A stretch of DNA of 39,985 nt, taken from IMG/VR virus record IMGVR_UViG_2925939204_000007, positions 1 to 39,985 of that record. The stretch is one strand, 5' to 3'. The position numbers and the translations under genes were made by a program. Source of the stretch: a virus (lineage: Duplodnaviria; Heunggongvirae; Uroviricota; Caudoviricetes). Below are positions 4,952 to 37,151 of this stretch, piece after piece (position 1 is the stretch's first letter; every line of letters starts with the position of its first letter). The notes beneath the pieces are model-generated. The model was given only the letters and a program-made list of their open reading frames with translations, was not told the DNA's origin and searched no databases.

Positions 4952-5692
4952 TTAATTAGGCGCGGTAGTATTCCCGCTGCCATTCTGCACACCGCCATGG
5001 GTATGCTGGATGAGGCTCTTACCTCCAGCCTTCACATCGTTAGTCACCGTCACCGGCCCAAGCATCGTCGCAGTACCGCCACTTTCGCCCATTCCCTGAG
5101 ACAGATTGCCATTAATCGTTACGTTGCCGTTCAGCGTGATAGTCGGGGATGTGATTGTCGTTCCACCTTCAGCCGTAGCCGTGAGCTGGCCCGGTGTTTG
5201 AACGGTGATGTTATGTCCTGCGGCAACCTCTACGAACGCCGCACCATCATCGGTTCGCAGCTGCGCGGCGCTGGTACTGATACCGCTGATTTTCTGTGCT
5301 TGCGACTGCGGGCCAACGATGGCGAACGCATCAGATAAGTCATGCTGTCGCGGATCGACGGTCTCCTGAACGCCGCCGCTCTGCCACCAGAAATCGATGC
5401 AACGGTCGGCAAAGATCAGTAGGCACTCGTCGCCTTCTTTTACCGGAAAGGTCAGCGTGCAACCGCCGCCGCGCGGGAAGATAACCGGCACATCCACCAG
5501 CGGTTTTAATTCGGTGGAGCCATCGCCAACAATACCGCGAAGCGCTACCTCTACTGTGCAGGTAACAGTGTCAGGATCGAACGACTGAATGATGCCGGGC
5601 ATCGCTACGCGCATCTGGGTAGACACCGAATCGACAATGGCCTGCGCGGTCTGCTGCTCACCGCCGATCTGTGATTGAGTTGGAATTGGCAT
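4952..5692 (-). CDS. Baseplate central spike (gpV / Mu gp45-like)
   Basis: 246 aa; Gly/Thr-rich C-terminal region typical of spike beta-helix; GGAG RBS 7 nt upstream of the ATG at 5692. Confidence 0.7.
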   Translation of the reverse strand: MPIPTQSQIGGEQQTAQAIVDSVSTQMRVAMPGIIQSFDPDTVTCTVEVALRGIVGDGSTELKPLVDVPVIFPRGGGCTLTFPVKEGDECLLIFADRCIDFWWQSGGVQETVDPRQHDLSDAFAIVGPQSQAQKISGISTSAAQLRTDDGAAFVEVAAGHNITVQTPGQLTATAEGGTTITSPTITLNGNVTINGNLSQGMGESGGTATMLGPVTVTNDVKAGGKSLIQHTHGGVQNGSGNTTAPN

Positions 5693-5756: not shown

Positions 5757-6881
5757 TCAGTTCATACCAGCTCCTTTATAATTCTTACACGGTACAGCTA
5801 CAGTCACCATTTCTACGTATCCGTCATTGCCTTGTTTTTTACACATTGCGTTATGCATTACTGCAAGCCTAGCGGCATGATCAAAATCGATATAATTATT
5901 ACCAAATGAAGCCTCGCCGAGAGCTGCAACTTTCGTCATGTCTGGTGTGTTGGGGTCTTTTACCATTTTAGCAAAATTGCTTAGACCCCTACCAACCTGA
6001 TCAAAGCACTGAGCTTCTATATCGTAGCCTGAGTATGCTGAGATACGCTGACATTCAGATAGGTGTTCTTTTACTGATAAATTTATTCGATATAAAGTCA
6101 GGTAAGATTTCCCAACGTGTATATAAACTTTCATGGGGTTATTGGTATTGGGTGACCTTGTTACAAATGAAAGCTTACTATACGCATCCCTAAGAGACCG
6201 TGCTTTTTTACTGGAAAAAACATCACCAAGCCCTACAACTGGCACCTCTGGGTTTGCTTTATCCTGCGCGATGGCTTTTTCTTTTTCAATCTGACTTGAC
6301 TTAGATATAATTTGCGCTCTCATAGAGCTTATTTTGATTACGACTTCATTCCTTATTTTATATAAATCACTAACTGACTGTTTAAAGTCTTGCTCGCTAA
6401 TGCTGTTGAGGCCAAAATACTCACGTTCTTTTAAAAAGTCGCTATACACTTTAGAAACATGGTTAGGATCTGATAACGCACTAGATCCAAAGATAATTGA
6501 GTAGTTATTCAAAATATCAGCAACGGTTGAGTATCTAACAGATTTATCTTCTATTTTATAAGTCGATGGTGGATGCCCTACATAATCATGAATTGACAGA
6601 TAAAGCGCAGTTATACCAATTGGACTAGTATTGGCCTTTTCAACCACATCTTGAAATGTACAACCTTTAGGGCATAGTGATTCACCACCCTCATTCGCAG
6701 TTAATTTATCGTCCTCTAGAACGTAATTAATGGCCTGCACCCCAGCTTTAGAATGTATAATTTCAGTTTTCTGCTTTTGATACTCATTATTTAGTTGAGT
6801 TCTCTGAGCTAAACCACACCCTGAAATAAAGCTACAAACCATCCATATAAAAAAATATTTCTTAAATGTCATGTATTTCAT
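5757..6881 (-). CDS. Lipoprotein of unknown function (moron inside the baseplate operon)
   Basis: 374 aa; N-terminal signal peptide with lipobox (MKYMTFKKYFFIWMVCSFISGC); ATG overlaps the hub-gene stop (ATGA); markedly AT-rich (17 G/C in 60 nt at 6301-6360); followed by its own terminator. Confidence 0.75.
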   Translation of the reverse strand: MKYMTFKKYFFIWMVCSFISGCGLAQRTQLNNEYQKQKTEIIHSKAGVQAINYVLEDDKLTANEGGESLCPKGCTFQDVVEKANTSPIGITALYLSIHDYVGHPPSTYKIEDKSVRYSTVADILNNYSIIFGSSALSDPNHVSKVYSDFLKEREYFGLNSISEQDFKQSVSDLYKIRNEVVIKISSMRAQIISKSSQIEKEKAIAQDKANPEVPVVGLGDVFSSKKARSLRDAYSKLSFVTRSPNTNNPMKVYIHVGKSYLTLYRINLSVKEHLSECQRISAYSGYDIEAQCFDQVGRGLSNFAKMVKDPNTPDMTKVAALGEASFGNNYIDFDHAARLAVMHNAMCKKQGNDGYVEMVTVAVPCKNYKGAGMN

Positions 6882-7969
6882 CCGGTCCGATTAATAGTCG
6901 AGATACTTTGTAAATCTCGCGCCCCACGAGCAAAGCACATCAAATCCATGTACCACGCCTGACCTCTGGTGTCGCCAGTATAGTCGATAGCTTTGACGAT
7001 ATAAAAGCCATCCGTCGCAATGCTGGCTGGTTGACTGACAGTGCCGTTAACGACGAGATTACCATTCATGTCGCTCTCTTGCAGCTTTGGTGAGGGTATG
7101 ATATTTCCATTCTCGTCGTATTTGACCGCACGAAGATCTTCATTGTTTAACTGCGTTCGGTACACCGAAGCCTGATCGAGCTGGATAAGACCATTAATGC
7201 GGATGTTCGGGTTTATCAGGCACCGCACGTTTACGCCGCCGCCCATTGTCTGTTGCGGCATACCGATCAGGCCAGTATCGGCATTCAGCACGATGGCTTC
7301 GTGAATATATTTATCCTCCGGCACCATCTGGACCTGACCATCAACCAGTTGCCATGTCGCTTTGCACTGCGCAGCAATATTATCCATCACGTTACGGGTG
7401 GATGAGTAAATCGCACGGCCACGAGGAAACACGGTATCAGGAAAATCGCCGGTAATGCCCTGTGTCACGCCGAACGCGTTGAAATCCTGCATCGTCGCCC
7501 GGTGCAGGTCCGCAACGGTATAACCAGCGGCAAGCGTGGTGATGGTAGTCGCGTAGAGGAACGCTTCGTGGTTACTGATGGCCTGAATCAGCACCCAGGA
7601 ATCGGTGATGTTGTCCTTCCCGGTGACGGTGAAGCGAATATCACCGTCAAATATCAGGCCGTAGTTCTGACCGTTCACCTGCCCTACCTGGTCTGGTGAA
7701 ATCTCCCGGGCGACACCAACCTGGCTCGCATCAACATCCGGCGCAATACCGTCATACCCGGCAATGATGCGAATTTTTGCAAACTCCTGCCCCAGTATCT
7801 TGTTCGTGGTATCGGTCGAAAGGTTGTAAATTTTCACGTTCGCCACGCGTGGCCAGCGTGTGTCTGCCCACTCGATCTGGAACGTGACCTTAAAGTCAGA
7901 CAGGGAAACGCCCTGCCCGTTCTGGTCCAACAGTTGCAGCTCAAAATGGCGCATCCAGTTAAGAGACAT
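6878..7969 (-). CDS. Baseplate hub protein (Mu gp44 / P2 gpD-like)
   Basis: 363 aa; position between the tape-measure-proximal genes and the spike. Confidence 0.65.
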   Translation of the reverse strand: MSLNWMRHFELQLLDQNGQGVSLSDFKVTFQIEWADTRWPRVANVKIYNLSTDTTNKILGQEFAKIRIIAGYDGIAPDVDASQVGVAREISPDQVGQVNGQNYGLIFDGDIRFTVTGKDNITDSWVLIQAISNHEAFLYATTITTLAAGYTVADLHRATMQDFNAFGVTQGITGDFPDTVFPRGRAIYSSTRNVMDNIAAQCKATWQLVDGQVQMVPEDKYIHEAIVLNADTGLIGMPQQTMGGGVNVRCLINPNIRINGLIQLDQASVYRTQLNNEDLRAVKYDENGNIIPSPKLQESDMNGNLVVNGTVSQPASIATDGFYIVKAIDYTGDTRGQAWYMDLMCFARGARDLQSISTINRTG

Positions 7970-23435: not shown

Positions 23436-23712
23436 CCGCAACAGCCACTTTGATATCTTCCTCGGTTCTCTGTGACTCCAGTGCGATCTGCTGCCTGGCA
23501 TATTGATTTGTCTCCAGAATGATGTTCGTTATTGCTACGGTGCGCAGGACATTCGCGGTGATGGTCTCAAAGGAATCAGCGCGCTGTTCTGCATCGTCAG
23601 CGCGCCGCTGTTCCTCCAGAAACTTTCCATGGTAATGATTCGCTGACCAGACAAGACCACCAGCAATACAAGCAATAAACGTTAAAATGAGCGCCCAATA
23701 ACTCATCTTCAT
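23320..23712 (-). CDS. i-spanin (Rz-like)
   Basis: 130 aa; N-terminal TM helix then charged coiled-coil-like region; start overlaps the endolysin stop. Confidence 0.65.
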   Translation of the reverse strand: MKMSYWALILTFIACIAGGLVWSANHYHGKFLEEQRRADDAEQRADSFETITANVLRTVAITNIILETNQYARQQIALESQRTEEDIKVAVADDDCAVRFVPSGAVKRLHDYANGLRSSSGGSVTSQPDG

Positions 23713-24323
23713 ACCAGCAGCGCCGCCCGCGCCTTGTTGTATCGGACCTTACGATCCTCAATACCGTTCAGACCGCCGTTAATGATGCGAGTAACACGAT
23801 TAATATCGGCACCGTAGATCATGCAGCCTTTAGAGGTGTAGAACCATGCAGCTGAGCGCGCAGCCTGTAGTTCCTGTTCCAGTTGTTCAGGTGAAGTCAC
23901 CAAATCTAACTTCAGAGCAGCCCCGCAGGTGCGATAATTGTCGAGGCCAGTGATTTGAATTAACCCTCTGCCGCGATATTTCCAGCCGTCGCCGGGCGCT
24001 TTGTTACCCAGGCGGTTGCTATACACCAGATTGGCAATAGCATCCTGACGAGCTGCATGTCCGGATGTTCTGCCAAGGGCATCAGCCTGCTGCTGTGTGA
24101 TCCTCTTTCCGAACGTCGCCACCAGCGCAGATGGTGTGTAGTTCAAATTTTCAACTACAGCGCTAAAGCCACCAGACTCATGACCTACCTGAGCGATGAA
24201 CATGGCCTGATCCGCGGGTGCTGTAATGCCGAATTCTTTCATCGCTGCATCTACTGGTTGAAACCAGCGCACAGCCAGTCCGGCGCTGATACCAGCCGCC
24301 TTTTGAAATAATTGTTGGTTCAT
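23709..24323 (-). CDS. Endolysin, glycoside hydrolase family 19 (chitinase-like lysozyme)
   Basis: 204 aa; motifs AQVGHESGGF... and YRGRGLIQITGLDNY typical of GH19 phage endolysins. Confidence 0.8.
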   Translation of the reverse strand: MNQQLFQKAAGISAGLAVRWFQPVDAAMKEFGITAPADQAMFIAQVGHESGGFSAVVENLNYTPSALVATFGKRITQQQADALGRTSGHAARQDAIANLVYSNRLGNKAPGDGWKYRGRGLIQITGLDNYRTCGAALKLDLVTSPEQLEQELQAARSAAWFYTSKGCMIYGADINRVTRIINGGLNGIEDRKVRYNKARAALLV

Positions 24324-24604
24324 TAGTGCCTCAGATGATCAACCAGGCGTGCAACGTTGCCTCTGACGGCCACCAGCACGGAAAGAAAAATAGTATTCGC
24401 CACGATAATGGGCCATGAGGAATGGGGATAAATCCCACAGAGATAGGCCAACGGAACAGCACTGTATGTAACAGTAATCAGCCAGGCTAAACGTGAAACC
24501 CAAGGACGATGCCGCGAATCACCACGACGATAAAACATCAGAGTAATAACAACACAAGCACATAACAGCGCGTTTATAGTTGCTGTCGGGTCATTTAGCT
24601 CCAC
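24323..24604 (-). CDS. Holin (putative)
   Basis: 93 aa, GTG start with GGGGAGG RBS; multiple hydrophobic helices; immediately upstream of the endolysin. Confidence 0.6.
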   Translation of the reverse strand: MELNDPTATINALLCACVVITLMFYRRGDSRHRPWVSRLAWLITVTYSAVPLAYLCGIYPHSSWPIIVANTIFLSVLVAVRGNVARLVDHLRH

Positions 24605-24977
24605 CTGAACCTCCCCGGCGCGTTATGAGCGCCACCAGCGACCCGATATCCTGATTATTCAGGAACGTCAGGATCTTAACGGCTAAAGCAGATACGATTA
24701 CGGCACCAATGGCATCCAGAGGTTTATCACTGTATCCGGTCAAGCTTGCCAGCTTGGAGCCAACCAACCCAGAGCAAAGGATCCCGGCAATATACGACAC
24801 GATAAAATATGCCAGTCGGCGCGATGCGCTCAGATCCGCTGCTGTTGCTATGTAGAATACAGCCCCTGCAAATGCGCCAAATACAACGCCGTAATCAGTT
24901 CCGGTCAGCAGTCCATAAACACTGGCACCCGTCAGGGCACCACCAGCCAGCCCAGTACCGGAAATTGGATCGGACAT
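24591..24977 (-). CDS. Holin-like membrane protein (holin or antiholin partner)
   Basis: 128 aa; Gly/Ala-rich TM segments; AGAGGGGG RBS; first gene of the lysis cassette. Confidence 0.55.
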   Translation of the reverse strand: MSDPISGTGLAGGALTGASVYGLLTGTDYGVVFGAFAGAVFYIATAADLSASRRLAYFIVSYIAGILCSGLVGSKLASLTGYSDKPLDAIGAVIVSALAVKILTFLNNQDIGSLVALITRRGGSGGAK

Positions 24978-25211: not shown

Positions 25212-25364
25212 ATGAGTGAATCAAACAAACCATCTGGAGAAAATAAGCCTCAACCCGCACCACAGCCTAAACCGGCTCCACAGCCAGCCGAAAGAAATCT
25301 GAGGACAGGTTATACCTTTGTTGCCGATTCTGCTGAAAACATCAGAAAAAAAGGTAAGTAAGTA
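25212..25364 (+). CDS. Small proline-rich protein (50 aa), hypothetical
   Basis: Not in the ORF track; GGAGAA 6 nt before ATG; MSESNKPSGENKPQPAPQPKPAPQPAERNLRTGYTFVADSAENIRKKGK; convergent with, and overlapping the 3' end of, the membrane-protein gene. Confidence 0.3.
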
Positions 25365-25911
25365 CTGAGATTACAAGTGCACAAACAGGGGTGAGGATTG
25401 TAGCGATCCTTACCCTTTCTAGTTCTCGGCCTATTCTGGCATTCTCTTTTTTACTCATTTCAGCCATTCTGGTTAAATCCGCAAGCCGGTAGCGCCGCAA
25501 GACGTTCAATGTTGAACGCTTTCCTGAAAATCCTTTCGACTCAAAACCAGTGTAATCATCTTCAGTAAACCCTTTATAGTCATCATGGTAAAGCGCATAG
25601 GGTGTCGATGACACGAGAGCTCGTGACCTTACAACGAGGACGCAGCGAACAAGATAAGCCGCACACATTGCCCAGTAGACTAAAAAAACAGACATTCCAG
25701 CGGTGAGGTAATCAAAACCTGTACGTTGCGTTAATAACAAAAATGACGAGCCCACGCCAGCAATGAGTATACTCAATAACTTCTGGCCATTTTCTTTGTT
25801 TAGTGCGTTGGACTGGTGAATTTCGCGTATACAATCCTCGCCCTGCTTCTCCAGAAAAGCAACGAGTTCGTCGTCCGCATCCAAAAAGTAATCATCGGGT
25901 AGATTATTCAT
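25342..25911 (-). CDS. Membrane protein of unknown function (moron between Q and lysis genes)
   Basis: 189 aa; 2-3 predicted TM helices; relatively AT-rich; flanked by terminator-like hairpins. Confidence 0.6.
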   Translation of the reverse strand: MNNLPDDYFLDADDELVAFLEKQGEDCIREIHQSNALNKENGQKLLSILIAGVGSSFLLLTQRTGFDYLTAGMSVFLVYWAMCAAYLVRCVLVVRSRALVSSTPYALYHDDYKGFTEDDYTGFESKGFSGKRSTLNVLRRYRLADLTRMAEMSKKENARIGRELERVRIATILTPVCALVISVLTYLFF

Positions 25912-26115: not shown

Positions 26116-26898
26116 TTACCGCGTTATCTGCTTAAGCTGTTTTTCGGCCCAGGACTCTTCGATATCAAATTTCGTGATCAGCAGGTCGTAGAATGGCTTA
26201 ACAGACTTTTTCCAGGTGTCCAGGCTAATGGCGTCAGTAATCTGGCATACAGCAGCATAGGCTTCAGTCGACGGAAGTCGTTCATACCCACGCCCTCCGC
26301 AGCGCTTACAGTCAGCCAGAACAGGAACGCCCTGTTTCTCAGTAAGAGCCTGGTTCACTGCCTTGCCGCGCCCATGGCAATCACTGCAAGAAGCACTAAC
26401 CACACCAGAGCCATTACACTTTTTGCATAGCACTTTGATGGATTCTTTGACCTTCACCATCCCGGACACGGTCATTTTCCCTTCTGGCTTACGGAATTTA
26501 TTGGTAAACACGTCAGCCTCAATGAAGCCCTGACCGTCACAACAATCGCACTGCTTCACGCTGGCAGCGCTGCGGGAATAGTCCTCAAAAGCGAAGGTGG
26601 CCAACTGGTGCATCACCTGAGGTTTAACCGCGGCACCGAGCTTACGCAGTGCGGCAACCTTGTCGCATTTTGTCATCGCGTACTCAGCCAGCAGACCGAT
26701 CGCCCGATCCCGGTCGTTATTGCTTATGCCCATCTTGCCGAGGAAGGCGCTGTAACCCATTGCGGCGCGTTCCTGCGTCATGCCCATGGCAGCCATTATG
26801 TCGGTACCGGTCAGTGAATCGGAGGCGGTAGCGCGCGGAGAATCGCTAATCAGTGTGGATTTAGCGAAGTGGTATTTCACTGTGTTTTCAAGGTTCAT
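26116..26898 (-). CDS. Late-gene antitermination protein Q-like
   Basis: 260 aa; multiple CxxC zinc-finger-like pairs; position downstream of rusA and upstream of the lysis cassette. Confidence 0.75.
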   Translation of the reverse strand: MNLENTVKYHFAKSTLISDSPRATASDSLTGTDIMAAMGMTQERAAMGYSAFLGKMGISNNDRDRAIGLLAEYAMTKCDKVAALRKLGAAVKPQVMHQLATFAFEDYSRSAASVKQCDCCDGQGFIEADVFTNKFRKPEGKMTVSGMVKVKESIKVLCKKCNGSGVVSASCSDCHGRGKAVNQALTEKQGVPVLADCKRCGGRGYERLPSTEAYAAVCQITDAISLDTWKKSVKPFYDLLITKFDIEESWAEKQLKQITR

Positions 26899-29268: not shown

Positions 29269-29509
29269 TTACGCCGCTATTTGTTTCTGCTGACAAAGCT
29301 CCGGTAAATTAGCCCTCACCAGTGCCTCGGCGAATGGCGGCGGAACTGCGTTGCCACAACGCGCAACCTGCTTGTCCTTCGCGTACTTCTGCCCCCGATA
29401 GTCCTGATCGATGATGTACCACTCCGGGAAGCCCTGCCAGTTTGGCGTTGTTCAACCCTGGGTTGTTGCGCAGGGCTGCCAGCACCTGCTCACGGATTGT
29501 TATGTTCAT
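29269..29509 (-). pseudogene. Possible remnant of a DNA C5-cytosine methyltransferase 3' end (frameshifted), or small unknown ORF
   Basis: 66-codon ORF from ATG 29509; an alternative frame over 29269-29430 encodes ...GFPEWYIIDQDYRGQKYAKDKQVARCGNAVPPPFAEALV, resembling the C-terminal motif IX-X region of C5-MTases; no intact N-terminal gene. Confidence 0.25.
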
Positions 29510-29510
29510 G

Positions 29511-30200
29511 TCACACCATCCCGTTCGACTTGTTGCGGTTGTACTTGGCCAGCAGCAGCTGGATCGGCGTCGGCCCTTGCTCGGCAGCTGGTGCGGCAAT
29601 AGCCCGGCGTACCGGCGGCACTGGCTTACCCTCGGTGACGCGCCTTTCCCACATGTCCAGCAGATCGCCTGCCTCGCGTGCCAGTTCACCATGCGTTAAC
29701 TGGCGCTCGGTGCTGCGGTGGCGCAATTCTACGCAAATGTGGTACATGACCGGCTGCGACCATGGAAATTGCTCGCTGGAGATGAATTCGAACGAGCGGT
29801 TACGCCAGTCCCAGTATTCGGCGATCACCTGGTCAACGTTGACGCCCAGCGCGCCGCCGCTCTGCTTGCACCAGGCGACAAACTGGCCCGGCGACGGCAG
29901 GAATGGGCGCTCCTGGCGGCGGGCAATGCGCATGCCGGCATCGACCTGAGCCATGGTGTGGATCCCGTTCTCCTGAAACGCCAGCAGCCACTGACGGCGG
30001 AATTCGTTCAGGTCTTCCTGGGTGCGGAAGTTCGCCATGCTGGCCGGGAACGCGGCGCGCAGCTCGTTGAACAGCTTGTTGAATACCTGCGCCACCTGCT
30101 CGACCGGCGCGCACTCCTGGTACTGCTCTGGCAGGTTATGGGCCATGCGGCTCATCTGCTCGCGGTCGTGGTTACGCATCTGCTCTGCAAGAGATTTCAT
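29511..30200 (-). CDS. P: Replication protein P-like (helicase loader)
   Basis: 229 aa; MKSLAEQMRNHDREQMSRMAHNLPEQY... and RRQERPFLPSPGQFVAWC match lambda P as recalled; ATGA overlap with O. Confidence 0.85.
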   Translation of the reverse strand: MKSLAEQMRNHDREQMSRMAHNLPEQYQECAPVEQVAQVFNKLFNELRAAFPASMANFRTQEDLNEFRRQWLLAFQENGIHTMAQVDAGMRIARRQERPFLPSPGQFVAWCKQSGGALGVNVDQVIAEYWDWRNRSFEFISSEQFPWSQPVMYHICVELRHRSTERQLTHGELAREAGDLLDMWERRVTEGKPVPPVRRAIAAPAAEQGPTPIQLLLAKYNRNKSNGMV

Positions 30201-31105
30201 CGGATCACCCCATAGGCCCAGTCAGTGTTGTTGAAGTCCAGATCTGGCTTGACAGCGCGCTGCTCACCTCCGGCGTTACGCTGCATTGTCAGCTTGTCCC
30301 ACTGCTTACGCAGGCTTTCGGGACTCAGGATGTTGGTCTGCCAGAAGTGGTGTTTGCTAGCCCAGTCATACAGCGCGCAGATGTCCTGGTGCGACCGGTT
30401 GTCTATCTGGCGCATCAGGCGAACAGTGTTAGACCAGGAGGTCATGTCCGGGGCTTTGCAGGTTGGGTTAATCAGCTTCACCCTGGAGGAAATCCACTTA
30501 GCTGTCTCGAGGTCTTCAGCAGAGCCCCACTTCGCACCGGATGGTGTGTAGACCGCAGCTTCAGGATGAGTTGATAAAAATTTCTTCAGACGTGCGTCAG
30601 AGGATTCGTCAGAATTCTCGGACGAAGATCTTTTAATACTGTTCTTGTTCTTGTATTGGGTGTCTACCGTTTTCGGGAAGGTTATTCCTGATTTCGGGAA
30701 GGATTTTCCCGTTTTCGGGAATTTTCTTCCCGTTTCCGGTTTGTCTAAAATCCATGCTGAAAGGTCAGTGTTTACACCGACGATTTTCATCATGCCCTGC
30801 TTCTGTGAAAAGATGATTTTGCGTTCTGCGAGAGACTTAAGCGCGTCCGATACATGCGTATCGCTCAGGCCCGTAAGCTCGGCAATAACCGTATTTGTCA
30901 CGCGGTCCTGTTTCTTGTTCCAGCCGTAGGTAAGCCAGATCACCGCCTCAAAACATTGCCATTCCCGGCCTGACAGTCTCAGGCGAGGCTTAAGCTGTTG
31001 GATCTCGTTAGCGACCTTGGTATACCCGTTCGACAGGTCGGCCATACGACCTCCCGGTTGTTCGGTTTTATTTGGGAAATTGAATATTTCAGCGGTATTT
31101 GACAT
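30197..31105 (-). CDS. O: Replication initiator O-like, containing ori iterons
   Basis: ATG at 31105 with GGAGAA RBS; N-terminus MSNTAEIFNFPNK resembles lambda O; repeated FPK(T/S)G peptide encoded by the iterons. Confidence 0.85.
   Translation of the reverse strand: MSNTAEIFNFPNKTEQPGGRMADLSNGYTKVANEIQQLKPRLRLSGREWQCFEAVIWLTYGWNKKQDRVTNTVIAELTGLSDTHVSDALKSLAERKIIFSQKQGMMKIVGVNTDLSAWILDKPETGRKFPKTGKSFPKSGITFPKTVDTQYKNKNSIKRSSSENSDESSDARLKKFLSTHPEAAVYTPSGAKWGSAEDLETAKWISSRVKLINPTCKAPDMTSWSNTVRLMRQIDNRSHQDICALYDWASKHHFWQTNILSPESLRKQWDKLTMQRNAGGEQRAVKPDLDFNNTDWAYGVIR
30625..30745. repeat. Phage replication origin: four iterons (core TTTCGGGAA at 30671, 30692, 30713; TTTCCGG at 30733) at about 21-bp spacing, plus adjacent AT-rich region (30628-30659)
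   Basis: Direct repeats read from the sequence inside the O-like gene; same layout as lambda ori. Confidence 0.65.
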
Positions 31106-31189
31106 ACTGTTCTCCGCAATTACGCACAGTTTTTGCACCTGAAAGCCGTTGGTGTTCGAGCACCGCGGCTTTCGCCATTTCTGAGCCCG

Positions 31190-31747
31190 TCATAGCGCAC
31201 CACCCAGCATCGTTGTAACCATCGCCATAATGGGCGCCACAGAATCAGGTCCGTCCAGGTAGAGCTTGGCTACGATGCTCTCGCTGATTTCCTTCATCCG
31301 TTCGTGTCTGGGGGCTTTGAGGACGACAGCCTGTATCGCCTCAGCGTCTTCTTTCACCGACCTGGCGACACGAACCGCAAAGCAGTCGTGCTTAATCACG
31401 CGATCCCGGTACGCCAGCGGCAGAACCGAAATTATTACCGGCGCCAGCTGCTCGACGTTCGCCCGGTAGGCCGGTGATTTCTCGTGGTTGTCCAGCCAGC
31501 GAAACAGCTTCACGTTCCACACATCGGCGCTGCCGGTCATGTCAATGCTGTCAAGCTCGGCCTGTTCGGCAGCCTCTTTAATCGCCAGAGCGACCGCCAC
31601 GCGGCCCTCTGCCGCCGCCCAGGCGCGGACGGCAGAACAGATAGCCCGGTGATCGACCGGCTGGCCTTCAGCCTCACTGTGTTGATACTGGAATTTCAGG
31701 TGCTCTGATGGCGCTCTGTTATTCTGTTGAAAAGAAAGTGTTTGCAT
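31190..31747 (-). CDS. CII-like / YdaT-family early regulatory protein (putative)
   Basis: 185 aa; AGGAG RBS; position between the cro-like gene and O. Confidence 0.45.
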   Translation of the reverse strand: MQTLSFQQNNRAPSEHLKFQYQHSEAEGQPVDHRAICSAVRAWAAAEGRVAVALAIKEAAEQAELDSIDMTGSADVWNVKLFRWLDNHEKSPAYRANVEQLAPVIISVLPLAYRDRVIKHDCFAVRVARSVKEDAEAIQAVVLKAPRHERMKEISESIVAKLYLDGPDSVAPIMAMVTTMLGGAL

Positions 31748-31758
31748 TGTCAGTGCTC

Positions 31759-31977
31759 CTACTTTGGTAATCCGTCAGTGGGATTTGGATAGAGATCAGG
31801 GCGCAGCTCGTGGGGGGTTACGCCTGTCATTTTGAAAATCGGGAAGATATAGCTTGGCGGGACGATCCCTTGGTCACGATTCTTCCAATGACTTACAGAC
31901 ATACTCGTCACACCAAGCGCGATGCTGAGCTTTCTGGCAGAGCCAGCGGCTTTAATTGCTTTATCGAGTGCGGACAT
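31759..31977 (-). CDS. Cro-like HTH regulator (YdaS/Cro family)
   Basis: 72 aa; HTH (GSARKLSIALGVTSMSVSHWKNR); divergent from the repressor; AGGAGAAG RBS. Confidence 0.7.
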   Translation of the reverse strand: MSALDKAIKAAGSARKLSIALGVTSMSVSHWKNRDQGIVPPSYIFPIFKMTGVTPHELRPDLYPNPTDGLPK

Positions 31978-32035
31978 GTGCTTCTCCTGCTTATTGATAG
32001 CAGAAGTAAACCACAGATTTATACTTCATGCAAAC

Positions 32036-32063
32036 TTTGGATTTATTGCGTGCATAAACCAAA
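32036..32063. promoter_or_regulatory. Candidate operator palindrome in the divergent switch region (TTTGGATTTATTGCGTGCATAAACCAAA)
   Basis: Imperfect inverted repeat; overlaps a PRM-like promoter (-35 TTGCGT 32046-32051, -10 TACAAT 32068-32073) that would give a leaderless repressor mRNA; ATAAACCA recurs in the spacer of the promoter at 33518. Confidence 0.35.
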
Positions 32064-32079
32064 TATTTACAATGACCAT

Positions 32080-32469
32080 ATGAGAAAAGAAGAACCCAAC
32101 CTCGTTCTGGTGGAGCGCCTTACTGAGATCACTGATCGCGGCGTTACCAAAGCAGACATGGCAAGAATAGCTGGAGTCACCCCTCAGGCCGTAAACGGCT
32201 GGTTCAAAAAAGGCGTGATTAGTAAGAAATCGGCACTGGCCATAGCCGACGCTGTTGGTATTTCTGTCGCCTGGCTACTCGGTGAAGACGTTGGGGAGAA
32301 AGACGGTCTCAAACCGGACGAACAGCGTTTGCTCGAGCTCTACCGCCAGTTACCGGAAGAAGAGCAGCAGAACATGCTCCGCATTTTTGCGCTTCGCCTG
32401 AAAGAGTTAGATGAGCTGTACGAGAAGTACATGAAGGGTCGGATTCGATCGCAAGGTGAGCAAACCTAA
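32080..32469 (+). CDS. Prophage repressor, short XRE-family HTH protein without peptidase domain
   Basis: 129 aa; HTH (VTKADMARIAGVTPQAVNGWFKKG); no S24 autoprotease C-terminal domain; divergent from the cro-like gene. Confidence 0.75.
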   Translation: MRKEEPNLVLVERLTEITDRGVTKADMARIAGVTPQAVNGWFKKGVISKKSALAIADAVGISVAWLLGEDVGEKDGLKPDEQRLLELYRQLPEEEQQNMLRIFALRLKELDELYEKYMKGRIRSQGEQT

Positions 32470-32533
32470 ACCAGTAGTATCTAATTCCATGTAATAAAAA
32501 TATTTCAAGATTTAATATCTTCTGGAGGATTCG

Positions 32534-32815
32534 GTGTCTAAAGAAACAACCGTCGAACTTATGCATCTTAATGATGTAATCGAAGCGAAAAATTTCATCG
32601 AGACCAATGCTGACGGTGTCGTAACAATCGGCACACAAAATGCCGGTTACGAAGTTTACAATTTTGTGTTCCTGAATAGCAGCCCGATCATCGGTACGGA
32701 TAATGCGGATATAGTCGTCAAGGGCATGCAGCGAACCAAAGTTGTGTCTGTGACTTTAAGCAAACAAAAGGCTTATGATTTTTATCAATCCTTAAAAAGT
32801 ATGTTTGAGGAATAA
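32534..32815 (+). CDS. Hypothetical protein, first gene of AT-rich cassette downstream of the repressor
   Basis: 93 aa; GTG start with GGAGG RBS 5 nt upstream; no terminator between the repressor stop and this gene; 14 G/C in 60 nt at 32761-32820. Confidence 0.6.
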   Translation: MSKETTVELMHLNDVIEAKNFIETNADGVVTIGTQNAGYEVYNFVFLNSSPIIGTDNADIVVKGMQRTKVVSVTLSKQKAYDFYQSLKSMFEE

Positions 32816-32821
32816 TAATTG

Positions 32822-33343
32822 ATGGATGCGGCTCAATCATCTCTTGGTGAAGGGAAGTTATTGATTGCATATTCAGACCATAGCGGAGCTACAGTAGGCT
32901 TAGAGTTTTCATCAGTAGCTTCGAGCCAAGCAACCTTCCTTATGGGTGCTTGTAGTTTTGCCGCTTCGGATAAACAAAAACGGATTGTCACATCAGTTGC
33001 TATGGATGATACTGAAATCATTCATACGTCAACTGAAGATGGAGGTGACGACATGGAAAAGAGATTGGCTATTCTTGAGGTTGAAGTTGCCCACATCAAG
33101 AAAGATGTTGCCGAGATAAAAAACACAGTTTCAAAAGTTGATACGACAGTGAATTCACTGGACAAAAATATGGCTGTAGTTTTGGAGAGGCTGTCTAGTA
33201 TCAAAGAGTCTGTAGACAAAAAGCCCTCATCAGACACAGTGGACAAGAAAATCTCTGATGCTAAATTGGCGATTCTCTTAGGTGTCCCTGCGATTATCGC
33301 CATTGGTACAGGGCTGTACAAAGCTTTTATGCACTTCTTTTAG
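32822..33343 (+). CDS. Coiled-coil protein with C-terminal transmembrane anchor (XhlA-like architecture), second gene of cassette
   Basis: 173 aa; start 6 nt after the gene-1 stop; coiled-coil region (EKRLAILEVEVAHIKKDVAEIKNTVSKVDTTVNSLDKNMAVVLERLSSIKESV) then hydrophobic tail LAILLGVPAIIAIGTGLYKAFMHFF; followed by a strong terminator. Confidence 0.65.
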   Translation: MDAAQSSLGEGKLLIAYSDHSGATVGLEFSSVASSQATFLMGACSFAASDKQKRIVTSVAMDDTEIIHTSTEDGGDDMEKRLAILEVEVAHIKKDVAEIKNTVSKVDTTVNSLDKNMAVVLERLSSIKESVDKKPSSDTVDKKISDAKLAILLGVPAIIAIGTGLYKAFMHFF

Positions 33344-33416
33344 TCAGATTTGGTCAATACGCCTGAGTTATAAGGCTCTCAGCTACTAACTCTGTCGCCT
33401 TCCCCGAACCTTCTCA

Positions 33417-33443
33417 TCCCGACCACGCGTCGGGATTTTTTTT
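33417..33443 (+). terminator. Rho-independent terminator ending the repressor-cassette transcript
   Basis: Stem TCCCGAC/GTCGGGA with loop CACGC, followed by T8. Confidence 0.7.
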
Positions 33444-33517
33444 GCCTGCGATTCTGCAGACGTGTCACAAAACCCAGCCACATAAACCTCAGATTTACAA
33501 TTAACACCAACCTTAAG

Positions 33518-33546
33518 TTGACATGTATATAAACCAGTGATTTAAT
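33518..33546 (+). promoter_or_regulatory. Sigma70-like promoter for the rightward early operon (-35 TTGACA, 17-nt spacer, -10 TTTAAT)
   Basis: Consensus -35 hexamer at 33518-33523; spacer contains ATAAACCA, also present in the switch region; about 250-nt leader before the first gene. Confidence 0.5.
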
Positions 33547-33798
33547 CTAACTCACCAAGACGCACCACGAACCACCCAGGCATGGAGCCCACGAAGTAGC
33601 CGTCCGGGGCATACGAAAACCGGAATGAGGTGGTGATATTAACGCGCAGTAGGTTTGAAACGTTCCGCCAGCCTGGCGACAAGGGCAAACACAGAAGTGA
33701 GCTTCGCGGTGGTGAATTGCAGAGTTAAAACGCTCAACTGTGAAGATCAGCGTCACGGCACCACCAGCGAAGTTCACTCAGCAATAGTGGAGAACATC

Positions 33799-34005
33799 AT
33801 GGTTCATCAGCACTACGGTACACAGACAGTAAACCGCGGCGCAGTTCAGCCGGGGATGCTTGTAAAACACAAAGACTCAACCTGGACCGCATCTGCTAAC
33901 GCACGCGGTCGCCTGTATCTTCACCGTGGCATCGAACGTACCTACACCAAAGATTTGCTGGTTGAGGTTTATCTAAACGGTTTAGGACATGGCCTTAGCC
34001 ATTAA
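33799..34005 (+). CDS. Hypothetical small early protein
   Basis: 68 aa from ATG 33799 (GGAG 5 nt upstream); the ORF track extends the frame to a TTG at 33655. Confidence 0.45.
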   Translation: MVHQHYGTQTVNRGAVQPGMLVKHKDSTWTASANARGRLYLHRGIERTYTKDLLVEVYLNGLGHGLSH

Positions 34006-34016
34006 CGGAGTGAGTT

Positions 34017-34178
34017 ATGCAGGAGAAAAAATGCGCGTACTGCCGCAAGCCGATCAAGCAAGGGAAGGAAGTTAAAAACGAACTGCTCTTTATCCACGGC
34101 ACGCAGTTGAAACGCGAGCAACGTGATTACTGTTCAGTACGTTGCGCTTCGTTCGACCAGATGGCCCACGAAGCATAA
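34017..34178 (+). CDS. Small zinc-ribbon-like protein (53 aa)
   Basis: Not in the ORF track; GGAGTGAG RBS; MQEKKCAYCRKPIKQGKEVKNELLFIHGTQLKREQRDYCSVRCASFDQMAHEA with CxxC...CxxxC. Confidence 0.4.
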   Translation: MQEKKCAYCRKPIKQGKEVKNELLFIHGTQLKREQRDYCSVRCASFDQMAHEA

Positions 34179-34316
34179 CGAAAACCCCGCGCAAGGCGGG
34201 ATTCACGTCCGGTGCCACCGACCAAAGTTACACCGGAATTTATACCAAACCAAAAAACATCCAATGGGCGCTATCTCTGGCCCGGGGATTCTAACACTCA
34301 AAAAAGAGGATCTCAC

Positions 34317-37151
34317 ATGGAATTTTTCCATCTGATAAAAGCCAGTCAGAAGTCTGGCAAGAAAGATGCAGTGATTTGGTTCACTGCGAAAAGTGTAGCG
34401 CGCGCCAATCTCCAACTCGATGTGGCACTGGAAGAAGCCGGAATTGAAGAAACTGGCCGCGGTAAAGATTATGCCAAACCAATCCGCACCGATTTCCCGG
34501 TATATGACGACCTGCCGGAAGAAGGCGCAGTGGATTACACCTGGTGCAAACGCTACGAACTGCAGAACGATGACCGCACCTGGCTGCCAAAAGTCACAGC
34601 TGAAAACTCTGACGAGAAAACGGCTCAGACCGTTGATAGTCACATAACTACTGAGTCAACGCTGCCAGAAACCGCTGGCATCACGCTGGACGAACACGAC
34701 GACGACTCAACCCTCTACCCGGTAGTGCAGATGCCGTTTCGTAAGCAACTGCTTTCCCAGTTCACCGCCGACGAACTGCGCCACCACGTAACCCGCGAAG
34801 AGTACGAAGCTATCGGCGCGCTGGAGATGGACACTGATAACAGTTACGTCCAGAACTTGCTGTTAGCTGCTGAGAACTGCCCGGAAGTGAAGGGTTACGA
34901 CACCAAAGACCTGTGGCGCTACACCGATGCCATTCGCAAAGTGTTCAGCCAGGACAAGCGTCACGAACTCGCGCTGGTACTCCGTTTCACCAGAATGTGG
35001 GCGGCGACTGATTACATTGACCGTGGCATCCTGGCGCGTGAATGGGCTGCCGGTAATCACATCAGTAGTGTTCAGCGCACTGACGCAGGTACCAATGCCG
35101 ATGGTGGATATGTCACCGACCGCGGCGAAGGTGCGCATCACACGCTGGACACACTGGATCTGGAGATCGCCTGTGCCCTGCTGCCGATGGATTTCAACCA
35201 CCTTGAGATCCCGGGCAGCATTCACCGTCGCGCCAAAGAAATCGTGGCGAAAAAAGAAGAGCCCTGGAAATCATGGAGCGCCCTTCTGCGTAACCAGCCT
35301 GGCGTTCTGTCGGTAAACCGTGCGGCCATTTTCAACCTGGTACGGATCGCACCGGAAAACATTCATCGTACGCCGGCGGCCCATCTGGAGTTCGTTAACC
35401 AGACCATGACCGCTGAGTTTAACGCCGCAACTGAACTGATGCCCCTGCGCGCGTCCGCGGTTCAGACGCAAGTAGAGGTTGAGGAACCAACAGCTCAGCC
35501 GCAGGTCGCGAACCTCGGCGGTGGCATGTTCTCCATCAATGGCCTGTTGAGTGGAAATACTAACCCGGTCATCAATATTCCCTCAAATGAAGCAGAAAAA
35601 CCGGAAACCGTAGTGGAGACCACCAGCGATGTGCAGATGGAAGCGACTCAGCCAGAGAAAGACAAAACTGTTGATACGGTACCACCAGGCGAAAGCGCTG
35701 ATGCAACTGATCCGCAAACAGATACCCTGAACCCGGCTGAGGTGCTCTCCGCCGCGGCGCCGGAGCTGGCGAACGCCACTACGCAGGAATTGACCACCGA
35801 AGCATCAGAGGAGAAAGCGAGCGCGCCGGAAGAGCAACCTTCACAACCGGTCCCGGAATACCCGGCGTACTTCGAACCGGGCCGCTATGAAGGCGTGCCG
35901 AATGACGTTTATCACGCGGCGAACGGGATCAGTTCCACCCAGGTGAAGGATGCCAGGGTCAGCCTGATGTACTTCAACGCGCGCCACGTCGCCAAAACTA
36001 TCCCGCGGGCCCCTTCCAAGGTGCTGGACATGGGTAATCTGGTTCACGCCCTGGCGCTGCAGCCTGAAAACCTTGAGGCAGAGTTCAGCGTGGAGCCGGA
36101 GATCCCGGAAGATGCTTTTACTACCACCGCCACCCTGCGCGAGTTCATCGATTCGCACAACGCCACCCTGCCGGCACTGCTGAGCACTGACGATATCAAA
36201 GCGCTGCTTGAAGAGCACAACGCCACCCTGCCCGCGCAGCTGCCGCTGGGCGCCAGCCTGGAGGAAACGGCCCAGAGCTATATGGCTTTGCCGGCAGAGT
36301 ACCAGCGCATCGAGCCAGACCAGAAGCAGACCGCAGCAGCTATGAAAGCCTGCATCAAAGAGTACAACGCCACCCTGCCCGCGCCGGTTAAAACCAGCGG
36401 CAGCCGCGATGCGCTGCTTGAACAGCTGGCAATCATCAACCCTGACCTGGTGGAGCAGGAAGCCCAGAAGCCGGCACCGCTTAAGGTGTCCGGCAGCAAA
36501 GCGGAAATGATCCAAGCGATTAAGTCGGTTAAACCCGATGCCGTATTCGCCGACGAGCTGCTGGACGCCTGGCGAGAAAATCCGGGCGACAAGATTCTGG
36601 TGACGCGCCAGCAGCTGGTGACCGCCCAGGCCATCCAGTCGGCCCTGCTGGCACACCCGACCGCAGGCATGCTGCTAACCCACCCGAGCCGCGCCGTTGA
36701 GGTGAGCTACTTTGGCTTTGACGAGGAGACGGGACTGGAAGTTCGTGTGCGCCCTGACCTTGAGATCGACCTAGACGGCGTGCGTATCGGTGCTGACCTG
36801 AAAACCATCAGCATGTGGAATGTTAAGCAGGAAAGCCTGCGCGCCAGGCTACACCGGGAAATTATTGAACGTGATTATCACCTGAGCGCGGCTATGTACT
36901 GCGAAACCGCAGCGCTGGATCAGTTCTTCTGGATTTTCGTCAACAAAGACGAGAACTACCACTGGATCGCCATCATCGAGGCATCCGCTGAACTACTGGA
37001 GCTGGGTATGCTCGAGTACCGCAAAGCGATGCGCAATATCGCAACCGGATTCGACACAGGTGAATGGCCAGCGCCAATCACTGCTGACTACACCGACGAA
37101 CTGAACGACTTCGACCTGCGCCGCCTTGAAGCGCTGCGTACTCAGGCATAA
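34317..37151 (+). CDS. RecE-like exonuclease (exonuclease VIII family; C-terminal PD-(D/E)xK-like nuclease domain)
   Basis: 944 aa from ATG 34317 (AAGAGGA RBS); long acidic N-terminal region; C-terminal ...RPDLEIDLDGVRIGADLKTIS...; immediately followed by a RecT/Bet-family gene. Confidence 0.7.
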   Translation: MEFFHLIKASQKSGKKDAVIWFTAKSVARANLQLDVALEEAGIEETGRGKDYAKPIRTDFPVYDDLPEEGAVDYTWCKRYELQNDDRTWLPKVTAENSDEKTAQTVDSHITTESTLPETAGITLDEHDDDSTLYPVVQMPFRKQLLSQFTADELRHHVTREEYEAIGALEMDTDNSYVQNLLLAAENCPEVKGYDTKDLWRYTDAIRKVFSQDKRHELALVLRFTRMWAATDYIDRGILAREWAAGNHISSVQRTDAGTNADGGYVTDRGEGAHHTLDTLDLEIACALLPMDFNHLEIPGSIHRRAKEIVAKKEEPWKSWSALLRNQPGVLSVNRAAIFNLVRIAPENIHRTPAAHLEFVNQTMTAEFNAATELMPLRASAVQTQVEVEEPTAQPQVANLGGGMFSINGLLSGNTNPVINIPSNEAEKPETVVETTSDVQMEATQPEKDKTVDTVPPGESADATDPQTDTLNPAEVLSAAAPELANATTQELTTEASEEKASAPEEQPSQPVPEYPAYFEPGRYEGVPNDVYHAANGISSTQVKDARVSLMYFNARHVAKTIPRAPSKVLDMGNLVHALALQPENLEAEFSVEPEIPEDAFTTTATLREFIDSHNATLPALLSTDDIKALLEEHNATLPAQLPLGASLEETAQSYMALPAEYQRIEPDQKQTAAAMKACIKEYNATLPAPVKTSGSRDALLEQLAIINPDLVEQEAQKPAPLKVSGSKAEMIQAIKSVKPDAVFADELLDAWRENPGDKILVTRQQLVTAQAIQSALLAHPTAGMLLTHPSRAVEVSYFGFDEETGLEVRVRPDLEIDLDGVRIGADLKTISMWNVKQESLRARLHREIIERDYHLSAAMYCETAALDQFFWIFVNKDENYHWIAIIEASAELLELGMLEYRKAMRNIATGFDTGEWPAPITADYTDELNDFDLRRLEALRTQA

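Follow-up and report, generated by a model that had tools for sequence, protein, structure and literature searches.

The two small genes A and B, which follow the repressor gene of a prophage of Escherichia coli, are best explained as a mobile accessory ("moron") cassette occupying a cargo slot of the immunity region. With regard to their function, we tentatively favor, at a little under even probability, an exclusion or abortive-infection module that is expressed in the lysogen; the mechanism outlined below is considered less probable than this role. The window analysed, i.e. the whole stretch of 39,985 nt from whose first letter all coordinates are counted, was assigned to an E. coli Rac-like/lambdoid prophage by profile matches and RefSeq annotation. 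The features of the immunity region are compiled in Table 1.

Table 1. Positions of immunity-region features in the window.
Feature	Positions	Strand	Description or basis
YdaT/CII-like gene	31190-31747	minus	
Cro/YdaS-type gene	31759-31977	minus	
Putative OR-type operator pair	32007-32021, 32055-32069		between divergent cro/YdaS-like gene and repressor gene; 15-nt repeat TAAACCnnnnATTTA
Repressor gene, HTH only, 129 aa	32080-32469 (from ATG 32080)	plus	Pfam, PHROG, RefSeq
AT-rich spacer, 64 nt, 28% GC	32470-32533	plus	Shine-Dalgarno GGAGGA 32524-32529
Gene A, 93-aa acidic soluble protein	32534-32815	plus	GTG start, 4 nt past GGAGGA; phrog_12039
Gene B, 173 aa	32822-33343	plus	phrog_12602
B N-terminal domain, residues 1-73	32822-33040	plus	predicted beta hairpin plus helix, then acidic disordered linker ending GGDD
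B coiled coil, residues 78-133	33053-33220	plus	heptad reading
B C-terminal tail anchor, residues ~147-168	33260-33343	plus	LAILLGVPAIIAIGTGLY, 5-residue tail and stop codon
Terminator (intrinsic)	33416-33443	plus	closes repressor-A-B unit; 8-bp stem 33416-33436, then T8
Putative OL-type operator pair	33483-33497, 33530-33544		just past terminator; repeat TAAACCnnnnATTTA
Putative PL-like promoter	33518-33523 (TTGACA), 33541-33546 (TTTAAT)		17-nt spacer; overlapped by last operator copy; read from sequence

The repressor stop codon and the boundaries of A and B proposed in an earlier sequence-only reading of the window were confirmed by ORF calls. The repressor was identified by matches to Pfam HTH_3 (E 1.5e-6) and Phage_CI_repr (E 8.6e-4) and to the repressor families phrog_8 and phrog_4; PGAP places its start at GTG 32050, so that the gene would overlap with the second operator copy. 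Gene A matched phrog_12039 over its full length (E 1.6e-47, residues 1-93/93), and gene B matched phrog_12602 (E 2.7e-54, 1-147/183), with its C-terminal half additionally matching phrog_3556 (E 3.2e-28). Thus, full-length profile matches together with conserved homologues identify A and B as real genes; phrog_12039 and phrog_12602 are families of no assigned function. The two genes are separated by 6 nt, and the Shine-Dalgarno sequence of gene B lies within the 3' end of gene A. The AT-richness reported for the cassette was reproduced, with exactly 14 G/C in 32761-32820 and a GC content of 40.0% in 32470-33343 versus 52.7% in the window, where only 2% of equal-sized segments are as AT-rich.

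The 15-nt repeat was found by repeat search (family D1) in four copies that are 87-100% identical. By their position, these repeats would be operators. Since two operator-like copies on each side bracket the repressor gene together with A and B, the two genes lie within the immunity region at the place of lambda rexAB. The rexAB-like position previously ascribed to them therefore stands, and the pairs of phage HK544 and prophage Sp15 described below are also located at the rexAB place. The replication genes O and P are encoded on the minus strand, as is the Cro/YdaS-type gene. The PL-like promoter, probably a working one judging by its position, points at kilR, ydaE, recE, and recT; it is absent from the promoter-scan listing. 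The strong terminator claimed to follow gene B was recovered (8-bp stem and T8) and occupies the place equivalent to lambda Timm. As had been stated, the 64 nt that separate the repressor gene from gene A contain no terminator, and scans of this gap gave neither a consensus-promoter-like match nor an unusual fold. Rfam and tRNA scans of the window yielded no matches.

Megablast comparison with related prophages defined the borders of the cassette. The prophage of strain ET881 is 99.8% identical to the window up to position 32453 and again from 33427, that of strain AR_0118 98.6% identical up to 32435 and again from 33427. The exchanged segment (approximately 32454-33426) extends from the very 3' end of the repressor coding sequence into the terminator hairpin and coincides almost exactly with the A+B cassette. 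In its place, ET881 carries a gene for a 467-aa protein (phrog_5990), and AR_0118 an HTH gene, YoaK, HicA/HicB, and a hypothetical gene. A more distant prophage of strain 210205630 (flanks ~82%, repressor region 92% identical) contains PDC-M63A/B, a PADLOC candidate defence system (E 9e-40 and 9e-44), and phage PHB10 (flanks ~81% identical) contains three hypothetical genes. The presence of the cassette thus varies among related prophages; of the 5426 complete E. coli genomes, 12-14 contain the window-type pair. The interval between cI and N is a published hotspot of mosaic diversity, and the defences validated in this slot comprise RexAB, BstA, and HigBAC (PMC8585504, PMC7067206, bioRxiv 10.1101/2024.02.24.581848).

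Homologous pairs were identified well beyond the window. Close homologues occur in Citrobacter, Enterobacter, and Cronobacter, and an exhaustive profile search retrieved distant A relatives with 25-35% identity. In all 15 contexts examined, representing 11 distinct pairs, the A-type gene follows the repressor gene and precedes the B-type gene, after which the early-left operon comes next. The A-to-B spacing ranges from -4 to +6 nt, with the single exception of L027, whose ORFs overlap by 11 nt. The repressors upstream are of three types (short HTH-only, several S24/LexA-like CI, and lambda-immunity cI), and the recombination modules downstream comprise RecET, Bet/Exo, ERF, and Rad52.

Two of these pairs, ECs2991/ECs2992 of the Stx1 prophage Sp15 (VT1-Sakai, H0053) of O157:H7 and HK544c104/c103 of phage HK544, lie between cI and N, at the lambda rexA-rexB place. 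They share with A/B the gene order, the 6-nt gap, the terminator, and the place after the repressor. Identity to the Sp15 proteins amounts to 75% for A (versus ECs2991) and 55% for B (versus ECs2992), the latter rising to 57/73 residues (78%) over the first 73 residues; the C-terminal half of ECs2992 is of another anchor type (VKVWMLGVLL...INLYLKK) than that of B. HK544 and Sp15 are N-dependent lambda-like phages, whereas the window is a Rac-like RecET prophage. In the GenBank immunity-region record of HK544, the order is pRM, cI, two "conserved hypothetical" genes, Timm, oL, and pL. The pair is located next to cI in the Stx1 prophage of both O157:H7 Sakai and EDL933, and pairs of the ECs2991/ECs2992 type were present in 101 of 5426 E. 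coli genomes. The earlier description of the pair as undescribed holds for its function, for which no report was found, but not for the genes themselves, which already appear as conserved hypothetical genes in the VT1-Sakai and HK544 records.

Gene product A is acidic (8 K/R versus 12 D/E) and, as proposed, soluble, with no hydrophobic segment (Kyte-Doolittle maximum 1.0). Its predicted fold consists of three long beta strands and a helix at the C-terminus (AlphaFold model, pLDDT 83.5), and the protein is probably dimeric. A fold search with this beta-meander plus helix gave no RHH, HTH, or AbrB match; the sole significant BFVD match was an unnamed 93-aa viral protein that is probably a member of the A family. 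A may resemble dimer folds of beta sheet and helix such as PC4, Pur-alpha, and COMM-like proteins; the putative resemblance to PC4/Pur-alpha raised the question of DNA binding, which was judged unlikely since A is acidic, and no DNA-binding signature was present among its Pfam matches. No significant match of A to RexA or to other Pfam, PADLOC, or NCBIfam models was obtained.

The pair could also modulate induction of the prophage or its own switch between lysis and lysogeny, e.g. if it bound the repressor or Cro or held a factor at the membrane. Location in the repressor operon would fit such a role, as would the behaviour of lambda RexA, which according to published work biases the bistable switch and is antagonised by RexB. 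However, the same A-B pair follows unrelated repressors of the HTH-only, S24/LexA-like CI, and lambda-immunity cI types, which makes specific repressor contacts unlikely, and the acidic A has no signature of DNA binding. A switch modulator is therefore regarded as quite unlikely.

For gene product B, the proposed succession of N-terminal domain, acidic linker, coiled coil, and single C-terminal anchor was verified. Residues 1-76 are acidic (4 K/R versus 11 D/E). Eight heptads run without interruption through residues 78-131, with L V V V V M L V at the a positions and M L I I V L V I at the d positions. Beta-branched residues at both a and d favor coiled-coil oligomers above the dimer; by these coiled-coil rules, the B sequence suggests an oligomer larger than a dimer. 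A KKPS motif precedes the anchor, with K134, P135, and S136 invariant in 28 sequences, and the only hydrophobic segment comprises residues 147-165 (Kyte-Doolittle 19-residue mean 1.96). The monomer model of B was of low confidence (pLDDT 55; hairpin plus helix, disordered linker, and long helices) and too poor to be used in a fold search. As B has no signal peptide and approximately 5 residues past its C-terminal helix, it is expected to be almost wholly cytoplasmic. For the same reasons, a Sie-type protein that blocks injection is unlikely; a spanin or holin was rejected because both topology and location are wrong.

The sequence-only reading had likened B to XhlA-type membrane-active phage proteins, and B could accordingly be a lysis accessory of the XhlA/holin-associated type that serves the phage's own lytic cycle. 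B shares with the XhlA "hemolysin" and SlyX families the short length and the heptad-rich helix, and a membrane segment at the C-terminus is present in XhlA as well. Residues 77-133 of B gave weak matches (E 1.4e-5 to 0.07) to a holin family and to two "hemolysin" families of PHROG, 937 and 1193. However, even the best of these (phrog_937, E 1.4e-5) covers the coiled coil only, and XhlA was not among the Pfam matches at E<=1, so that the likeness to XhlA did not hold. XhlA sits in a lysis cassette, whereas gene B belongs to the immunity region, probably as part of the repressor transcript, and is distant from the endolysin/holin-like ORFs at 23709-24977 of the window (~23.7-25.0 kb); moreover, constitutive lytic activity is incompatible with expression in the lysogen. 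A lysis accessory is thus highly improbable.

Coiled-coil-type similarity also accounts for the remaining matches of B: those to SlyX and FlaC (Pfam) were weak, SlyX scoring 24.5 bits versus a curated cut-off of 30, and those to LmuB, DruC, and JetA in PADLOC-DB v2 reached E 9e-4 to 0.016 (12-16 bits), while A had no match in this database. Pfam revealed no RexB match for B. Overall, sequence searches of Pfam, PHROGs, PADLOC, NCBIfam, and PDB returned only PHROGs of unassigned function and coiled-coil noise. Searches by accession, locus tag, and phage name, with Degnan et al. 2007 and Brenes & Laub 2025 outside their scope, gave no reported function for the pair, and the accessions of the A/B proteins were not among the entries of the DefensePredictor supplements. 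Tai (tail assembly inhibition) was compared by text only; according to a text search, the respective paper mentions neither a repressor nor a transmembrane segment nor a coiled coil. The tools and literature searched gave no indication of a phenotype of the pair in defence, toxicity, or membrane function.

A motif K-Q-x-(K/R)-(V/I)-V-(S/T)-S-V had been reported in both proteins and taken as a hint at a shared domain. It was present in B only; the corresponding segment of A, MQRTKVVSV, shares 4/9 residues. The best ungapped A-B segment lies outside the motif and was equalled by 12-13% of shuffles, and hhalign comparison of the family alignments gave probabilities of 0.07% and 0.2%. The shared domain was accordingly rejected.

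Comparison of the B-type proteins pointed to a modular architecture. The C-module starts at a GGD(D/N)M hinge and exists in three anchor types. Type 1, found in the window, is accompanied by its own conserved terminator hairpin. It is likewise part of 122-148-aa proteins whose N-termini differ, and the genes for these are invariably located in the same slot. The partners encoded upstream of these proteins are unrelated to A and have 87 aa (phrog_4231) or 144-148 aa (phrog_5893); remote homology of the 87-aa partner to A was not adopted, with the hhalign result (probability 14%, P 0.002) taken as a hint only. Among ten non-redundant A-B pairs (HK544 was left out as a duplicate of Sp15), A identity correlated with B N-domain identity (Spearman coefficient 0.72) but not with C-module identity (0.04); the effect size counts here rather than a p-value because pairwise identities are not independent. 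We infer that A joins the B N-domain in a single functional unit, probably a complex, and that the coiled-coil anchor serves as exchangeable output module. The swapping of N-domain, partner, and anchor looks like conflict-driven diversification rather than housekeeping.

The coevolution of A with the B N-domain would also suit an addiction (toxin-antitoxin-like) module that stabilises the prophage, with B as membrane toxin, A as labile neutraliser, and no sensing of phages. Such a module would be consistent with the small gene in first position, the 6-nt gap, and the tight translational coupling with the Shine-Dalgarno sequence for B inside the end of A, and HicAB, a toxin-antitoxin system, occupies the same slot in a sister prophage. 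On the other hand, neither A nor B contains a toxin-antitoxin domain according to Pfam, NCBIfam, and PADLOC, likeness to known toxin-antitoxin families is missing, and A has no DNA-binding domain as is usual in type II antitoxins. Pure addiction is considered very unlikely; it overlaps with the exclusion reading since many prophage toxin-antitoxin systems act as abortive-infection defences.

Expression of A and B in the lysogen is supported indirectly by the proteomic detection of ECs2991, by the gap that contains no terminator, and by the terminator after B. By iTRAQ, only 394 proteins were identified in uninduced cells of O157:H7 strain 86-24 (stationary, anaerobic rumen-fluid, and LB cultures), and both ECs2991 (10 kDa) and YqjD are on this list (PMC3936929); strain 86-24 carries the homologous pair. 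In the VT1-Sakai and HK544 records, the depositors annotated the equivalent terminators as the end of the pRM transcript. Co-transcription of the repressor gene, A, and B in the lysogen is therefore probable.

Detection of the A homologue under these culture conditions alongside YqjD would also be expected of a lysogenic-conversion factor for host physiology, in which an ElaB/YqjD-like tail-anchored B with A as cofactor contributes to stress tolerance or membrane homeostasis. The architectures are alike, with a cytoplasmic helical part and a single C-terminal transmembrane helix, and morons expressed in lysogens often aid host fitness, as described for lom and bor in published work. However, B shows no match to Pfam DUF883 (at E<=1) or other sequence similarity to such proteins. 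Further arguments against a host factor, which we regard as unlikely, are that the pair is strictly bound to the repressor slot, that N-domain, partner, and anchor are swapped, and that toxin-antitoxin or candidate defence genes replace the pair in sister prophages.

The exclusion or abortive-infection reading is favored for several reasons: the slot houses validated defences, the cassette is AT-rich and strictly tied to the repressor, partners, sensor-like domains, and anchors are rapidly shuffled, sister prophages carry toxin-antitoxin and candidate defence cargo at this site, and a soluble protein is combined with a membrane protein. In the mechanism proposed, B would be a tail-anchored inner-membrane protein whose long parallel coiled coil bundles several copies of the single transmembrane helix. 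Its small cytoplasmic N-domain would bind the acidic, probably dimeric A, and the two would act as a specificity or control unit by which the anchor bundle is kept inactive. On infection, this unit would be upset by some product of the incoming phage, and the released bundle may then damage or depolarise the membrane, by which phage growth would stop. A-B binding, oligomerisation, membrane damage, and an anti-phage effect are thus all putative.

Known systems of the same slot resemble A/B in position but not in their proteins. Lambda RexAB is likewise encoded downstream of the repressor inside the immunity region, with a Timm-type terminator before OL/PL and the gene for a soluble protein preceding that for an inner-membrane protein. 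In lambda lysogens, rexAB is transcribed from PRM, and its products exclude T4 rII. However, RexA is a 31-kDa two-domain DNA-binding dimer, whereas A is a 10-kDa acidic protein with a predicted beta sheet, and RexB is a 16-kDa membrane protein with four transmembrane helices, whereas B is a single-pass tail-anchored coiled coil with a cytoplasmic domain. As RexA/RexB homology is lacking and B has one transmembrane helix instead of four, A/B does not belong to the RexAB family. BstA of Salmonella BTP1 and HigBAC of the E. coli NT1F31 prophage occupy the same slot, presumably use the repressor promoter, and are abortive-infection-type defences expressed in lysogens; both are unrelated to A/B, BstA being a single large DNA-associated protein and HigBAC a toxin-antitoxin-chaperone system. 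In actinobacteriophages, prophage-expressed Rex-like pairs of a soluble and a membrane protein (e.g. Sbash gp30/gp31) exclude other phages; Sbash gp30 and CarolAnn gp44 are RexA homologues, whereas A is not.

Taken together, it is possible, if on balance doubtful, that the pair founds a modular prophage defence family restricted to the repressor-downstream slot of enterobacterial lambdoid/Rac-like phages. Such a family would be built on a conserved tail-anchored coiled-coil "KKPS" membrane effector with three interchangeable anchor types. Exchangeable cytoplasmic sensor domains would be attached to this effector via a Gly-rich hinge, every one of them having a small co-evolving partner (A, the 87-aa, or the 144-148-aa protein), and one member would reside in the Stx1 prophage of O157:H7. 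The idea of exclusion based on position is what a specialist would expect; worth is added by the modular family, the presence in the Stx1 prophage, and HK544 as a test system.

The slot now has exact borders, one in the terminal ~15-35 nt of the repressor gene and the other halfway through the terminator hairpin, and it can be mined systematically even if the function of A+B differs from exclusion. If the pair excludes phages, it would represent a defence family to which none of the known systems is detectably related and a compact design of 266 residues, in which a sensor is combined with a membrane effector and the parts are shuffled in nature. As the homologous pair replaces rexAB in the plaque-forming lambda-immunity phage HK544 and adjoins cI in the Stx1 prophage, the function is amenable to a direct test by standard genetics. 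The answer bears on which phages are able to superinfect, or can be used against, Shiga-toxin-producing E. coli.

Comparison of window 29429-35434 with locus L001 shows a mosaic relationship between the window and the ECCWS199 prophage. The two share 97% identity across approximately 6 kb around the immunity region, and outside this segment the flanking sequences are either unrelated or 83-94% identical. The window lacks the 92-nt tRNA-Ile present in strain ECCWS199 (L001 3437-3528).

Four copies of TAAACCnnnnATTTA were found in the window, two at the operator-type repeat pair OR (32007-32069) and two at OL (33483-33546), with a copy spacing of 48 nt at OR and 47 nt at OL. Because the TACAAT hexamer at 32068-32073 lies 7 nt upstream of the repressor ATG (32080), the repressor mRNA may have no leader, similar to the leaderless mRNA of lambda cI. 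The repressor start annotated by PGAP (GTG 32050) would overlap an operator. Between the PL-like promoter and kilR, approximately 250 nt (33547-33798) are untranslated and gave no Rfam match; in N-dependent relatives the equivalent interval contains nutL, whereas for this Rac-like phage no N gene lies in the window. Many related loci carry a small opposite-strand gene (63-74 aa) directly 3' of the B-type gene and before PL, a counterpart of which is absent from window 33344-33798. When compared by eye, the encoded proteins look mutually related.

The window has a second AT-rich island (5757-6881, minus strand, GC 0.33-0.41). It codes for a protein of 374 aa that carries a lipoprotein-like signal (…SFISGC) and has no Pfam match. 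Its gene is inserted between a spike gene with a GpV apex motif (4952-5692) and a baseplate-hub-like gene (6878-7969), and is likely a tail-region moron. A further accessory-gene slot may be present in a mildly AT-rich stretch, where a 189-aa ORF is flanked by lysis-type genes (23709-24977) on one side and on the other by a gene (26116-26898) whose 260-aa product contains four zinc-finger repeats of the CxxCxGxG type.

Coordinates of features in the window and in related loci (L numbers).
Feature	Position	Strand	Remark
189-aa ORF	window 25342-25911	-	hydrophobic segments; GC of the AT-rich stretch 0.43-0.45
PL-like promoter	window TTGACA 33518-33523 / TTTAAT 33541-33546		overlapped by last TAAACCnnnnATTTA copy
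Small opposite-strand gene	L004 5552-5749	-	phrog_3975
Small opposite-strand gene	L007 6025-6234	-	
Small opposite-strand gene	L013 5769-5975	-	
Small opposite-strand gene	L015 5794-5985	-	
Small opposite-strand gene	L030 4411-4614	-	
Shorter cassettes	L009 4725-4988; L030 3565-3999; L033 3568-4014		
Alternative cargo in A-B slot	L003 5590-6992; L034 3984-5811; L002 5507-6910; L035 4039-5165		

The shorter cassettes have the coiled-coil/KKPS/anchor module in common with B but pair it with other partner genes, encoding proteins of 87 aa (phrog_4231) or 144-148 aa (phrog_5893). An hhalign comparison of the A family with the 87-aa partner (probability 14%, P 0.002, 69 columns) suggests a possible, very remote relationship.

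Other relatives carry different cargo in the A-B slot. Among close sister prophages, AR_0118 contains an HTH gene, YoaK, HicA/HicB and one hypothetical gene, and ET881 a gene for a 467-aa phrog_5990 protein. In more distant relatives (approximately 81-82% flank identity), the slot is occupied by the PADLOC candidate PDC-M63A/B (strain 210205630) or, in phage PHB10, by three hypothetical genes. Any of this cargo that is uncharacterised provides candidates for testing as good as A-B.
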